Notes under the pieces: generated by a model | Database searches by the model: none | The model's input: the letters and a program-made list of their open reading frames with translations, nothing else | What the model was told of the DNA's origin: nothing | Program-made: the position numbers and the translations under genes | Source: an uncultured Thermoleophilia bacterium | GTDB taxonomy: Bacteria; Actinomycetota; Thermoleophilia; UBA2241 | DNA length: 64,000 bases | Reading direction: 5' to 3' | Assembly (NCBI GenBank): GCA_963713475.1 | Contig: CAVQLY010000017.1 | Location: 37,606 to 101,605, forward strand | Shown here: positions 21,208 to 31,575 of the stretch, in pieces | Position numbering within the stretch: the stretch's first letter is position 1 | Layout of the letters: each line of letters begins with the position of its first letter

Positions 21208-21261
21208 ATCTCACGGGAGATCGCCGGTGGGCACCCGTGGGTTCGGACCACGGACCTCTTC
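21208..21261 (-). repeat. degenerate copy of tRNA-Ile 3' end (~36 nt) plus downstream hairpin ATCTCacggGAGAT: att-like scar
   Basis: cGGTGGGCaCcCGTGGgTTCGgACCACGGACCTCTTCgcc vs tRNA-Ile tGGTGGGCGCACGTGGATTCGAACCACGGACCTCTTCctt (5 mismatches). Confidence 0.55.
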
Positions 21262-21265
21262 GCCG

Positions 21266-22618
21266 TCAGTCGCCTTGACCGTAGGTCTGCAGCGACTCGG
21301 CCACCGCCAGCAACTCGTCGCGGGTGAGGCCGCCGCGGATCACCACGTCGAGCGGCACGTCGCCGGAGTGCACGTAGATCTGGGCGACGGCAGCCCAAAG
21401 CCCGATGAACACATCCGCGCGCGAACCGCTCATCGCCCCGCGCGTGAGTGTCACGCTCTGGCTCAGGTCGCCGGCGGTGAACGCGCCCCCGGCGAAGTCG
21501 TTGAGCCCGTTCGGACCGGAGACGTCCTCCTCCGACAGGATCGCGACGGTGAAGCTGCTGAGCCCACGCCGGTAGACCATGCTCACCAGGGGGCTGTGGC
21601 TGCGTTGGCCCTGGCCGCCGGCGAACTCGGCAGATGCGGTGACGTCGGTCAAGGTGAAGCCGTCCGGCACTTGGGCGGGGACCACCGGGGCGTATCCCAC
21701 GATGCCCTTGACTGCCGAGAGTGCCACGCGCTTGAACCCGTCGTCTTGCCGCGCCCGACCCGAGCCTCCCTGAGAGAGCTGCACCGCTCCCGGCCGGAAC
21801 AGCGACGGGTCGAGCGGTTCGTTGACGCGCACGTTCTCCATGTGGCGCTCCCACATCGGGTGGCCGTTCTCGCGCGAGCTGTAGCCGAACACCAGACCCG
21901 TCTCCTGATCGACGACCAGGCGGATCTCCAGGCTGTTCGCCGAGTGGTCGGCGAACGTCACCGTCCAGGACGGTCGGCCGTTCAGCGTGCTGGTGCGCAC
22001 GTCCATGCCTTCCTGGCCAGCGGCCAGCAGGGCGCGCAGTGCCGTCCCATAGCCGGCTCCCATGAAGTAGTTGGAACTGTCGCCGGCATTGCCGAAGACG
22101 CTGCCGGCCGGGAGCCCTGTCGACACCTGCGTGGCGACGAGGCGACCGTCCACGCGCTCCAGTGTCCACTGGGTGCCCAGCGCAGCATTGTGGATGACCG
22201 CCCACTTGCCGTGCTCGTCCTCGACGCGCCCGTCGCCGTTCGCGGCGAGGTACACACGGCTCCTGCTCGTGACGGGGGCATCGCCGTTCTGGTAGTCGAC
22301 ACCGATGTCGTCGGCGGTGAAGCTGCGAACGGCGCCGAGCGAGCCACTCATCTTCGCGAGCACCTGGGCGGCGAGGGAGATCTGCGGACCGCTGTCCCGG
22401 ACTCCGGGCAGGCCGAAGAGCACCACGGCTACCGTCACCGCAGCCGCCACGGCCGCGGCGGCGAGGCCGAAGCGGAGCACGCGGCGGCGCCGCGGCGCCG
22501 CGGCCGGCCTTTCTCGCTCCAGCGTCGTGACGAGCCGGGAGTAGTACCCCTCGGGGAGCTCCGGCACCGGGATGCTCGCCAGAGCCTGACCCATCTTGAG
22601 GTCGCGATCCGTGTTCAT
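21266..22618 (-). CDS. anti-sigma factor with large extracytoplasmic domain (450 aa)
   Basis: Overlaps ECF sigma gene stop by 4 nt; cytoplasmic N-terminus, single TM (VLRFGLAAAAVAAAVTVAVVLFGL); C-terminal ...LLAVAESLQTYG paralogous to C-terminus of 29549..31045. Confidence 0.55.
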   Translation of the reverse strand: MNTDRDLKMGQALASIPVPELPEGYYSRLVTTLERERPAAAPRRRRVLRFGLAAAAVAAAVTVAVVLFGLPGVRDSGPQISLAAQVLAKMSGSLGAVRSFTADDIGVDYQNGDAPVTSRSRVYLAANGDGRVEDEHGKWAVIHNAALGTQWTLERVDGRLVATQVSTGLPAGSVFGNAGDSSNYFMGAGYGTALRALLAAGQEGMDVRTSTLNGRPSWTVTFADHSANSLEIRLVVDQETGLVFGYSSRENGHPMWERHMENVRVNEPLDPSLFRPGAVQLSQGGSGRARQDDGFKRVALSAVKGIVGYAPVVPAQVPDGFTLTDVTASAEFAGGQGQRSHSPLVSMVYRRGLSSFTVAILSEEDVSGPNGLNDFAGGAFTAGDLSQSVTLTRGAMSGSRADVFIGLWAAVAQIYVHSGDVPLDVVIRGGLTRDELLAVAESLQTYGQGD

Positions 22619-23274
22619 GCTTCACCACCACGTTCGTTCGGGTCGCCCAGCAGGCGGCGGACGGTCGCTCTCGCGATCGAGACACGGGAACTCACCGTCC
22701 CCGCCGGGACGCCGATGATCTCGCCGGCGGTCCGGTAGTCGTAGCCCTCCTGGTCGATCAGTAGCAGCGCGGCGCGCTGGTCGGCAGGCAGAGCACCCAG
22801 GGCCGCATCGAGCCTCTCCCACGCCACGAGCCTGTCGAGAGGGTCAGATTCCGGCTCCACCGTGTGCTCCTCGAGAGGAGCCGGTTGTTCCAGCAACCCC
22901 GGCCTTCGTCTCAAGCTGTCCAGGCAGGTGTTGTAGAGGATGCGGTAGAGCCACGTGCCCACTCCCGAGCGGCTCTTGAACCCGGGCAGCGCACGATAAG
23001 CCTTGATCGCCGCGTCCTGCACGGCGTCTTCCATCTCGTCCTGGTCGCCGAGCAGCCGGTAGGCCAGGAGGCGAAGCTGCCGGTCGTGCATCTGGAGGAT
23101 CTCGGCGAACGCCCGCGCGTCGCCACGCTTGGCGGCGGCAAGGACGGCCGGATGCACCTCAGTACGCGGCGGCGCGGTCAGATCGCTCCCTCGTCTGGTG
23201 TGGGAAGTCCCTCGCTCAGCTTCGCCGCACGCAAGGTCCCCGCCTTCACCGATCGCCACGGACTTGCCCTCCAC
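22615..23274 (-). CDS. ECF (sigma-70 family) RNA polymerase sigma factor
   Basis: Region 2 (DAVQDAAIKAYRALPGFKSRSGVGTWLYRILYNTCLD) and region 4 (LPADQRAALLLIDQEGYDYRTAGEIIGVPAGTVSSRVSIARATVRRLL); N-terminal start uncertain (likely internal GTG). Confidence 0.8.
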   Translation of the reverse strand: MEGKSVAIGEGGDLACGEAERGTSHTRRGSDLTAPPRTEVHPAVLAAAKRGDARAFAEILQMHDRQLRLLAYRLLGDQDEMEDAVQDAAIKAYRALPGFKSRSGVGTWLYRILYNTCLDSLRRRPGLLEQPAPLEEHTVEPESDPLDRLVAWERLDAALGALPADQRAALLLIDQEGYDYRTAGEIIGVPAGTVSSRVSIARATVRRLLGDPNERGGEA

Positions 23275-23511
23275 GGTGCTACGCCCCCAGTCATCGCCGG
23301 CCTTCCACTCACATGGCGCCTCTACCCTGTTGGACGAGCGGCGGCGGCGATTCTCTCAGACGGAGGCGAGGACGCGCGGTCGGTCGGCCGCCCGCCCGCC
23401 AATAGGCACATCGACCTGGCGCGTCCAGGCGCTACACTCTGACGTGAGCGCCGCCCGCGCGGGTCGCACGCGGCGCGAGACGATCCCGACAGAAGGTCAC
23501 CGAGCGATCGC

Positions 23512-31045: not shown

Positions 31046-31312
31046 TCCGGCCGCGACGAGAACCACTTCGGCCGGAACCCGTGGTTCGACGACCCGTCGC
31101 CGTGCAAGAAGAGGCGGTGGCACCCTGCGGCGCCACCGCCACGTTCCGCATCCCCCAGGGTGCCGACCCCGCCCCGCCCTAGCTTCGAGCGCCCGGCCAG
31201 CTCGGGCGCCGGCTCAATGCAGCACCGTGAATGCGCACCAGTTGTGGTACGACCAGTTCTTGTCCCCCGGCATGAACTTGTGGGTCCGGGCGTAGAAAGT
31301 CGTACGGCAGGT

Positions 31313-31339
31313 TGTCTTCACCGGATTCCGGTGATTCTC
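31313..31339. promoter_or_regulatory. copy 6 of palindromic motif (GTCTTCACCGGATTCCGGTGATTCTCC)
   Basis: Located 40 bp upstream of a 19-codon ORF (31214..31273, minus strand) and 160 bp from tRNA-Ile. Confidence 0.6.
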
Positions 31340-31498
31340 CGGGAGGGCAGGGGGTCAGAAGTGAGGGACCGGGCTTGCCTCGGCATGTGCCAAGGAGTCT
31401 CGCCACGCGCCATCCGCACCCGGGCATTTGAGCTTCAGAATGATTGCAGAACGGGGGCTGGGTGGTGGTGGGCAAACGCGATTTCGCTGGAAATCGCT

Positions 31499-31575
31499 GG
31501 TGGGCGCACGTGGATTCGAACCACGGACCTCTTCCTTATCAGAGAAGCGCTCTAACCGACTGAGCTATGCGCCCA
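31499..31575 (-). tRNA. tRNA-Ile (anticodon GAT), 77 nt with encoded CCA
   Basis: Minus-strand sequence GGGCGCATAGCTCAGTCGGTTAGAGCGCTTCTCTGATAAGGAAGAGGTCCGTGGTTCGAATCCACGTGCGCCCACCA folds as canonical cloverleaf (7-bp acceptor, D-arm GCTC/GAGC, anticodon loop CTGATAA, T-loop TTCGAAT). Confidence 0.9.

Follow-up and report, generated by a model that had tools for sequence, protein, structure and literature searches.

In the 64,000-nucleotide stretch of metagenome-assembled DNA from an uncultured Thermoleophilia bacterium, a soil actinobacterium, that was analysed here (contig CAVQLY010000017.1; the entire stretch is hereinafter referred to as the window), the gene for tRNA-Ile(GAT) is followed by four displaced copies of its own 3' half, all in the same orientation as the gene itself. 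We conclude, with a probability of about 0.78, that the region between positions 21180 and 31574 is a tandem array produced by repeated site-specific recombination at this tRNA gene, a hotspot of such recombination in the clade. The displaced 3' halves bound four segments of 0.5-4.5 kb, with one to three genes each. A preceding examination of the letters alone (the sequence-only reading) had interpreted the copies as att-type duplications left by serial integration, with the recombinase either lost or acting in trans, and this interpretation is supported by the synteny, the integrase genes and prophage, the repeat arrays and the recurrence of individual units that are found in relatives. We therefore regard the finding as real and its interpretation as essentially correct, a well-supported new example of a known process, the formation of tandem islands at tRNA genes, in an understudied lineage.

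The repeats stand out in the window under several independent approaches. A repeat finder delineated a family of 77-nt direct repeats with four copies (21185-21261, 24341-24417, 26787-26863 and 31458-31534), along with a fifth exact 23-mer of the same family at 24911-24933. The 15-mer GTGGTTCGAATCCAC, which corresponds to the T-arm, occurs five times when up to three mismatches are allowed, always on the minus strand and always between 21.2 and 31.5 kb, compared to a mean of 1.4 occurrences in shuffled sequences, with none of 100 shuffles reaching five. To avoid circularity, an nhmmer profile was made exclusively from 15 units of other genomes, and this profile matched the window at exactly five sites, which all lie on the minus strand, with no match in the rest of the 64 kb (Table 1); because a profile derived from other genomes finds just these five sites, the serial copies of the tRNA-Ile 3' end are real. 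The four copies present in addition to the intact gene match tRNA-Ile and no other isoacceptor, and in the 40 or more loci examined, every match of the profile is co-oriented with the tRNA.

The copies run from the 3' strand of the anticodon stem (from the loop, CTGATAA, in some relatives) via the T-arm and the acceptor strand to the CCA end, and the 45-nt core of the repeat is CTGATAAGGAAGAGGTCCGTGGTTCGAATCCACGTGCGCCCACCAG. The identity with the tRNA begins at CTGATAA or at GGAAG in every copy, in the window as well as in L004, L005, L040, L060 and L062 (the L-numbers and contig_80901, which is L063 plus L060, denote loci or contigs of the relatives used for comparison; W marks window coordinates). 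In the better-preserved copies, the similarity continues for ~85 nt past the tRNA 3' end, giving a unit of ~130 nt that holds an 8-bp hairpin, the motif CCCTCCGCC, the tandem decamer TTCTGCAAYC-N-TTCTGCAACC and the heptamer CAAATGC. In the trailer of the intact gene, the hairpin (31478-31497) consists of an 8-bp stem and a 4-nt loop, GCGATTTC-CAGC-GAAATCGC, with a fold z-score of -2.7, and the tandem decamer, TTCTGCAATC-A-TTCTGAAGCT, is located at 31431-31451 and is followed by CAAATGC. The trailer is kept 3' of the intact tRNA-Ile in all species examined and is repeated after most of the 3'-half copies; TTCTGCAACC-N-TTCTGCAACC and CAAATGC are also found in the trailers of L004, L005, L009, L011, L016, L018, L039, L040 and L060, and the tandem decamer appears, too, 5' of some degenerate full-length copies of the tRNA, for example, at L040 8262-8290. 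The hairpin folds in each copy, the stems varying by compensated changes (ATTTC/GAAAT, ATCTC/GAGAT, GTTTCC/GGAAAC), so that the copies look like displaced trailers of different tRNA alleles rather than products of random decay. The hairpins lack a U-tail and were not scored as terminator-like.

The tRNA-Ile(GAT) gene, the only tRNA gene in the window (ARAGORN; Rfam tRNA, 74.2 bits), is preceded by a promoter-like site at 31618-31589 that was detected by a promoter scan; the sequence-only reading had placed this gene on the correct strand, with coordinates that were off by one. The same reading had noted the common orientation of all copies, which is borne out by the five profile matches, and had counted one mismatch in the tRNA part of the copy at 24361-24418 (R3 in Table 1) and five in that of the copy at 21208-21261 (R4), both counts being correct by direct reading. 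What had been taken for a T-arm fragment at 24897-24922 is indeed there, and is actually a decayed but nearly full 3'-half copy, ~24897-24940, that starts at GGAAG (R2); likewise, the related element with a hairpin that had been assigned to 26801-26900 exists, its true span being 26744-26863 (R1). R1 is located in the divergent intergenic region between an alpha/beta hydrolase gene and a gene for a propeller protein. R2, which has neither the acceptor strand nor the hairpin, forms the left end of a unit that carries a gene for a Pro_CA_2-like protein, and the same degenerate end is found in L004 and L060. R3 begins 25 nt after the stop codon of the Pro_CA_2 gene. R4, which begins 4 nt after the stop codon of a co-oriented gene for an anti-sigma-like protein, has decayed orthologues in L060 and a pristine one in L062. 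This anti-sigma gene ends with a TGA that corresponds to the TGA of the anticodon-loop sequence CTGAYAA (21262-21268), as is also the case in L060 (11210-11216) and L062 (11339-11345), so the att core supplies the anti-sigma stop codon in three diverged genomes. A further 40-nt block that bears a palindrome (CCGGAGAATCAYCGGAWTCCGGTGAAGAC) is present in two copies, 88% identical, one at each end of the array (repeat finder family D9; blastn; fold).

Comparison with ~15 genomes of uncultured Thermoleophilia, found via orthologues of the 415-aa gene beside the tRNA, showed that in every relative, the synteny with the window is conserved as far as the tRNA 3' end and breaks off precisely there. 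On the 5' side, the gene order is LysR, DUF354, DegT, VTT, GHMP kinase, Archease, RtcB, CM_2, BFN_dom, the 415-aa gene, (vapBC) and tRNA-Ile, and this flank, the right one in the window, is conserved in L004-L016 and L063, with 72-96% DNA identity up to the tRNA. Downstream of the tRNA, nothing is in common with the relatives except for individual units, and the content differs in every species-level relative. The vapBC pair, which the sequence-only reading had listed as cargo, has the 415-aa gene on one side and the tRNA-Ile promoter on the other, and the PIN gene is found at the same place in L004, L009, L011-L014, L016, L019 and L063, vapBC being missing in L005 and L008; because vapBC is 5' of the tRNA and conserved in most relatives, it belongs to the ancestral flank and is not cargo.

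In several of the relatives, the site that is bordered by this flank is occupied by an integrase. In L008, the gene for a 373-aa tyrosine integrase (Phage_int_SAM_3 and Phage_integrase domains) starts 150 nt after the tRNA and is followed by DarT/NADAR genes, and in L019 and L020, an integrase 74% identical to that of L008 heads a prophage, with genes for ParB, a methylase, the large terminase, an SPP1-type portal, a minor capsid protein and a scaffold protein, beside the same vapBC-tRNA pair. The order in L004 is tRNA, Pro_CA_2, repeat, SBP_bac_5 gene, repeat, an arm of the L008 type and a decaying integrase, the latter, behind the third repeat, with residues 83-179 deleted; L011 has integrase fragments downstream (detected with a hidden Markov model, HMM), and in L012 just 122 nt of the L008-type phage arm are left. 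Co-oriented arrays of the repeats are present in many relatives, such as L005, where the order is tRNA, 898-aa gene, repeat, histidine kinase gene, repeat, and contig_80901, where the 17 kb behind the tRNA contain six or more repeats. Some of the repeats are immediately preceded by conserved non-tRNA arms, which fall into at least two families (for example, GATGGGCAGGC...CAGCCTGC|CTGATAAGG in L004, L040, L043 and L060), which is how a left arm derived from attP would be expected to look. As a counterpart of the TTCTGCAACC pair in the trailer, the arm on the phage side has TGTTGCCGA in tandem, and both pairs are candidate arm-type binding sites of the integrase.

The sequence-only reading had suggested a comparison with related genomes for empty sites, in which the tRNA would be followed directly by the conserved flank; the break of synteny at the tRNA 3' end is there, and no strictly empty site was found among the relatives compared. 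There is no second repeat within 7.5 kb in L009 and within 6.3 kb in L011; the possibility that these two loci and L016 are empty sites with an ancestral cyclase-AAA16 flank is weakened by a repeat 5.3 kb downstream in L016 and by contig_80901, in which the cyclase-AAA_16 gene itself is flanked by repeats.

Individual units recur across genomes. The Pro_CA_2 unit is 97.8% identical between the window (W 24918-24362) and L004 (12154-12709) and 96.2% identical between the window (W 24918-24341) and L060, above the 85-88% identity of the conserved right flanks of these genomes to that of the window, and on either side, the homology terminates within the repeats. Counted from the tRNA, this unit comes first in L004 and L039, third in the window and fourth in contig_80901, and a metagenome protein scan indicated that close homologues of Pro_CA_2 are nearly always flanked by tRNA-Ile or by its 3'-half repeats. 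Repeats also bound the sigma/anti-sigma unit of segment D in L060, where it is 94.5% identical and the PNP gene is missing, and in L062 (74% identical), and a weak repeat follows the corresponding unit of L061 (79% identical). The cores that flank the L062 unit are pristine although its coding sequence is only 74% identical to that in the window, which argues for more recent recombination at the core. Finally, a sub-array of 5.3 kb, 99.7% identical in L042 and L040, abuts the intact tRNA at the core in the former; in the latter, its junction at the core is with a full-length but degenerate tRNA copy that is preceded by other genes.

The following series of events is the best-supported explanation of these observations. 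An integrase of the tyrosine family, borne by temperate phages and islands in the relatives, would cross over in or beside the anticodon loop; the incoming DNA would supply a new tRNA 3' half, regenerating the tRNA, and the old 3' half, together with its hairpin trailer, would be pushed downstream as a direct repeat. Repetition of this process would leave the four displaced 3' halves that bound four small, recombinase-free segments. The segments, then, would be att-flanked units of the cis-mobilizable type, whose gain, loss and reshuffling would proceed through recombination at the repeats. Catalysis would be supplied in trans, the integrase being encoded at another place in the genome or brought in by a phage, and ordinary deletion would erode the array afterwards.

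Several observations weigh against this interpretation. The window contains no integrase, excisionase, phage or transfer gene, nor a remnant of one, that could be detected by Pfam, tblastn or HMM searches, so the current mobility of the units is unproven. In particular, Pfam revealed no tyrosine recombinase among the plausible open reading frames (ORFs) between 786 and 34832, the cognate integrase used as a tblastn query against the window gave a best E-value of 2.2, and an HMM of 118 tyrosine integrases gave a best E-value of 1.2 among the 1000 six-frame pieces of the whole window, although it recovered degraded integrases in L004, L011 and L018 as positive controls. An integrase hidden in another frame or persisting as a pseudogene is ruled out by these tblastn and HMM searches. 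The sequence-only statement that no recombinase is encoded in any frame thus holds for tyrosine recombinases; for serine recombinases, none of which was found, it holds for Pfam scans of ORFs only, not for all six frames. Phage structural, packaging and lysis genes, which are present behind the same tRNA in L019, were not found in the window by Pfam, and a search of IMG/VR for the phage source of the integrase returned only integrases of 33% identity or less and recovered no free attP.

Neither an excised circle nor an empty junction was observed, and L001 and L002 (98% identical) carry the same array. Furthermore, the repeats include ~85 nt of the trailer where the simple product of attP and attB should have element DNA, which requires either an attP with a trailer-like sequence or excision between non-cognate repeats. 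R1, the copy nearest to the tRNA, is the most divergent and decayed, the opposite of what is expected if the newest copy is next to the tRNA; accordingly, the simple temporal inference of the sequence-only reading, from graded divergence to successive integrations, fails, and part of the variation is compensated and allele-like. The order Pro_CA_2, sigma/anti-sigma, beta-lactamase ... Mem_trans, NMO is common to the window and contig_80901, so the distal part of the array is inherited as a block, and some of the differences between the two, namely, the PNP gene, the 478-aa gene and W 12901-17946, have no detectable bounding repeats. Taken together, the common distal order and the repeat-less indels show that vertical descent, along with deletions and insertions of the ordinary kind, has a part in shaping the region as well.

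The most tangible alternative, which we consider possible but doubtful, is that the segments are pure relics of full-size prophages or islands, in which deletions spared the cargo and the att scars, so that nothing is mobile now and the similarity between genomes reflects vertical descent and ordinary homologous recombination. The decay of such elements can be seen in the internally deleted integrase of L004, the short phage arm of L012 and the integrase fragments of L011, and the shared distal order as well as the decay of R2 and R4, which have derived changes in common with their orthologues, fit the same scheme. However, none of ~25 inter-repeat segments in ~12 arrays contains a remnant of a phage structural gene, recombinase traces in the downstream regions of the relatives are confined to L004 and L011, and the segments are uniformly small (0.5-8.7 kb). 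Nor would relics readily explain a Pro_CA_2 unit that is far more similar between lineages than their flanks are and changes its position in the array, or the pristine cores around the divergent cassette of L062. The small, uniform sizes, the absence of phage debris, the near-identical Pro_CA_2 unit and the L062 cores favour cis-mobilizable units over relics. Under the interpretation preferred here, the segments probably entered by integrase action rather than through the decay of larger elements, and conceivably, they are still mobilisable.

A bolder extension is that the clade keeps a cassette platform, in which dozens of units of 0.5-9 kb, each ending in a tRNA-derived repeat of 45-130 nt, would be individually excised, captured and reshuffled by phage tRNA-Ile integrases acting in trans, with the paired decamers TTCTGCAACC and TGTTGCCGA as arm-type sites. 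We put this forward tentatively and think it rather unlikely in this full form.

Recombination without an integrase is less plausible still. A donor tRNA 3' half with its trailer (~130 nt), brought in by transformation or transduction, could recombine in a RecA-dependent manner, by Campbell-type or unequal crossing-over; such a route would make sense of a repeat unit of up to 130 nt that includes a trailer conserved in all species, of the additional 40-nt block common to the first and the last copies, and of units that begin with trailer-like sequence, as pieces of the region downstream of a donor tRNA would. We nevertheless deem it improbable given that every copy has a sharp 5' limit, fixed at the anticodon loop or stem, that the conserved non-tRNA arms directly upstream of some copies are a signature of site-specific crossover, and that a dedicated integrase family occupies the same site in relatives. 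Even less credible is the notion that the copies are functional cis-elements, i.e., minihelices of the T-arm and acceptor with a hairpin, retained at gene 3' ends for processing or termination (cleavage by RNase P or RNase Z, CCA addition or a terminator). The positions of R3 and R4 shortly after the stop codons of co-oriented genes, the preservation of the hairpin through compensated changes and the better conservation of some copies compared to the adjacent coding sequence, as in L062, could be construed in this manner, but R1 lies in a divergent promoter region rather than at a gene 3' end, R2 is devoid of the acceptor strand and the hairpin, no hairpin has a U-tail or is called terminator-like, the fold z-scores are unremarkable in three of the four trailers, the compensated changes are equally well explained by displaced trailers of different tRNA alleles, and the copies are tied to no single gene class. 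Chance similarity or unrelated pseudo-tRNAs are ruled out inasmuch as all copies are co-oriented 3' halves of tRNA-Ile with a trailer in common.

The coordinates of the array and its components are given in Table 1. Segment A has no counterpart behind the tRNA-Ile of any relative compared. In segment D, the phosphorylase gene is absent from L060 and L062. The two sigma factors encoded in the window are 47% identical to one another and the two anti-sigma proteins 27% identical; hence the pairs are paralogous, as the sequence-only reading had it, but only distantly so, and a recent duplication of the pair is ruled out.

Table 1. Positions of the tRNA-Ile(GAT) gene, the repeats, the inter-repeat segments and their genes in the window.
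Feature	Position	Strand	Basis or remark
Intact tRNA-Ile(GAT), array anchor, attL-type end	31498..31574	-	ARAGORN, Rfam
tRNA trailer (N)	31409..31497	-	sequence, unit alignment, fold, profile match 31537-31409
Repeat R1, divergent 3' half + hairpin + trailer	26744..26863	-	nhmmer E 5e-17
Repeat R2, decayed 3'-half copy (GGAAGcttGGTCCGTGGTTCGAATCCACGTGgCGtCggggg) without trailer	24897..24940	-	repeat finder, profile
Repeat R3, near-perfect 3' half + compensated hairpin + CCCTCCGCCAGATCC	24334..24419	-	nhmmer E 2e-20
Repeat R4, 3' half (5 mismatches) + hairpin	21180..21261	-	repeat finder, profile
Palindrome-bearing 40-mer copy	21131..21170	-	partner 31314-31353, downstream of tRNA trailer
nhmmer match	31537-31409	-	E 3e-32
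nhmmer match	24419-24334	-	E 2e-20
nhmmer match	26858-26744	-	E 5e-17
nhmmer match	21261-21180	-	E 8e-11
nhmmer match	24933-24911	-	E 6e-5
Segment A, 4.5 kb	26864..31408	.	Pfam; gene calls of L001, L002
Segment A: PD40/Tricorn-like propeller protein, frameshifted in window	26960-28818	+	
Segment A: ECF sigma factor	~28890-29552	+	
Segment A: 498-aa anti-sigma-like protein	29549-31045	+	
Segment B, 1.8 kb	24941..26743	-	Pfam
Segment B: alpha/beta hydrolase	25767-26669	-	
Segment B: GNAT acetyltransferase	25000-25770	-	
Segment C, 0.5 kb, single gene	24420..24896	-	Pfam, cross-genome comparison
Segment C: Pro_CA_2-like protein, 136 aa	24444-24854	-	
Segment D, 3.1 kb	21262..24333	.	Pfam, cross-genome comparison
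Segment D: PNP_UDP_1 phosphorylase	23512-24285	+	
Segment D: ECF sigma factor	22615-23274	-	
Segment D: 450-aa anti-sigma-like protein	21266-22618	-	
vapBC: Phd/YefM antitoxin + PIN toxin, conserved flank	31712..32475	+	Pfam

The GC content of the window is 70.6%, and the bulk GC content of the segments (0.66-0.70) hardly departs from that of the flanks (0.71), so the simple compositional shift that might have been expected of the segments is rejected; the GC content at third codon positions alone is lower in the array genes (0.77-0.92) than in the core genes of the right flank (0.89-0.96). A few weak Rfam matches are spurious or trivial, namely, Plastid-ycf2 antisense to the tRNA, mir-9242 at the palindrome described below, Fluoride (E = 0.6) and mascRNA at R2.

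The propeller gene and a 478-aa gene (19554-21068, minus strand) are split by frameshifts in the window and are intact in L002 and L001, respectively; the splits may represent errors of long-read assembly rather than true pseudogenes. Contig_80901 is heavily frameshifted. The propeller gene also contains an internal direct repeat of 176 nt (27341-27516 and 27750-27925, 74% identical) and several shorter ones, which reflect the PD40 blades and are unrelated to the tRNA repeats. A perfect GC-rich palindrome (19485-19533; 18-bp arms and a 13-nt loop) is located between the 478-aa gene and a gene of the beta-lactamase family; the spurious mir-9242 match covers it on both strands, and homology with contig_80901 resumes just beyond, at 19423. 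Further along, window positions 14314-17945 (MFS and PD40 genes) are replaced in L001 (783-4435) by a different 3.6-kb segment, with genes for Lactamase_B, a TPR/GerE regulator and a 424-aa protein, in a contig that is otherwise 98.5% identical, and no tRNA-type repeat was detected at either boundary of this swap; contig_80901 lacks W 12901-17946 altogether.

Among the relatives, insertion-sequence transposases (DDE_Tnp_1/DUF772, DDE_Tnp_1_4, rve) are found in or beside the tRNA-Ile trailer or the arrays in L041 (3529-5016), L016 (19060-20412) and L018 (4330-5856), the insertion in L041 replacing the repeat core itself. In L040 (4566-8226), housekeeping-type genes, for a short-chain dehydrogenase, GAPDH and PRPP synthetase, immediately precede three degraded elements, namely, a tRNA end, a trailer and a full-length copy of tRNA-Ile; this means either that paralogues of core-metabolism genes can be accommodated in the arrays or that L040 is a second locus. 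The more distant homologues of Pro_CA_2 (78-79% identical; e.g., L046 427-1066 and L049 2-992) are mostly without flanking repeats, one of them being located directly after tRNA-Ile and another one after tRNA-Ala(TGC), a hint that the gene started out as the native neighbour of a tRNA and was captured as a unit later.

Tandem islands at tRNA genes are not without parallel. In the Islander database, anticodon-centred sites are a common class, and tandems of three or more are rare, accounting for 4 of 3919 islands (PMC4383910). The array resembles the tRNA islands identified by Islander and TIGER in that an intact tRNA is present at one end and displaced co-oriented 3' fragments follow, identity starts from the anticodon loop (the anticodon-centred, or A, class of sites), synteny breaks at the tRNA, and relatives have a cognate tyrosine integrase or a prophage at the same site. 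By contrast, Islander wants an integrase for each member of a tandem, and none of the four segments in the window has one (an integrase is found in L008, L019 and, degraded, in L004); moreover, the segments are far smaller than typical islands, and the repeat, unlike that of typical tRNA islands, includes ~85 nt of the tRNA trailer.

The closest described case is the High Plasticity Region at the ssrA gene of Dehalococcoides, where 20-bp repeats of the ssrA 3' end mark off many tandem islands and where some islands, lacking integration genes, have been proposed to be cis-mobilizable and to have moved by accretion (PMC3146451). Both loci contain tandem islands behind a single small-RNA gene, with strain-specific content. 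The Dehalococcoides system employs a serine recombinase of the CcrB type, a target in the T-loop of tmRNA and a 20-bp repeat, whereas the locus described here is associated with a tyrosine integrase, the anticodon loop of tRNA-Ile and a repeat of 45-130 nt, in another phylum and with other cargo.

Cis-mobilizable elements (CIMEs) and accretion-mobilisation have been described for the streptococcal ICESt1/ICESt3 family. The segments in the window are similar to CIMEs in that they are flanked by cores that equal or resemble the 45-nt core of the integrase-bearing elements of L008, L004 and L019, encode no recombination or transfer functions (Pfam, integrase HMM) and, in L004, stand in tandem with a cognate integrase-bearing element; by this analogy, an integrase provided in trans would be predicted to move them through excision between the outer att sites. 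The differences are that mobilisation is only predicted here, that the helper integrase would be of the phage type and would not come from a conjugative element, and that the units are much smaller and more numerous. Both terms, CIME and accretion-mobilisation, are in use in the literature (PMC5704250, PMC3146451).

The likeness to integrons is one of behaviour only: the units are short, with one to a few genes, each ends in a structured recombination site, and the array is hypervariable among relatives, with one unit occupying different positions in different arrays. The array contains no intI, attI or Pc promoter, and the gene beside the anchor is a tRNA; its sites are direct repeats of a tRNA 3' half and trailer rather than attC palindromes, and its genes are not uniformly oriented. 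Lacking the defining features of integrons, it is not a member of the integron family.

As it stands, the array is a clean example of tandem accretion at a tRNA gene followed by decay, the unusual feature being the abundance of very small units. Through it, tRNA-Ile(GAT) emerges as a major plasticity hotspot in the genomes of a class of soil and sediment actinobacteria that is abundant but uncultured, and this site is linked to a specific family of temperate-phage integrases. Because no member of the array has an integrase, programs for island finding that require one would miss the array in its entirety, and gene flow by way of small att-bounded units may thus be under-counted. If the units were individually mobilisable in trans, they would constitute a natural system of cassette capture independent of integrons, and the platform envisaged above, if real, would be a functional analogue of the chromosomal integron, assembled from a tRNA gene and borrowed phage recombinases.

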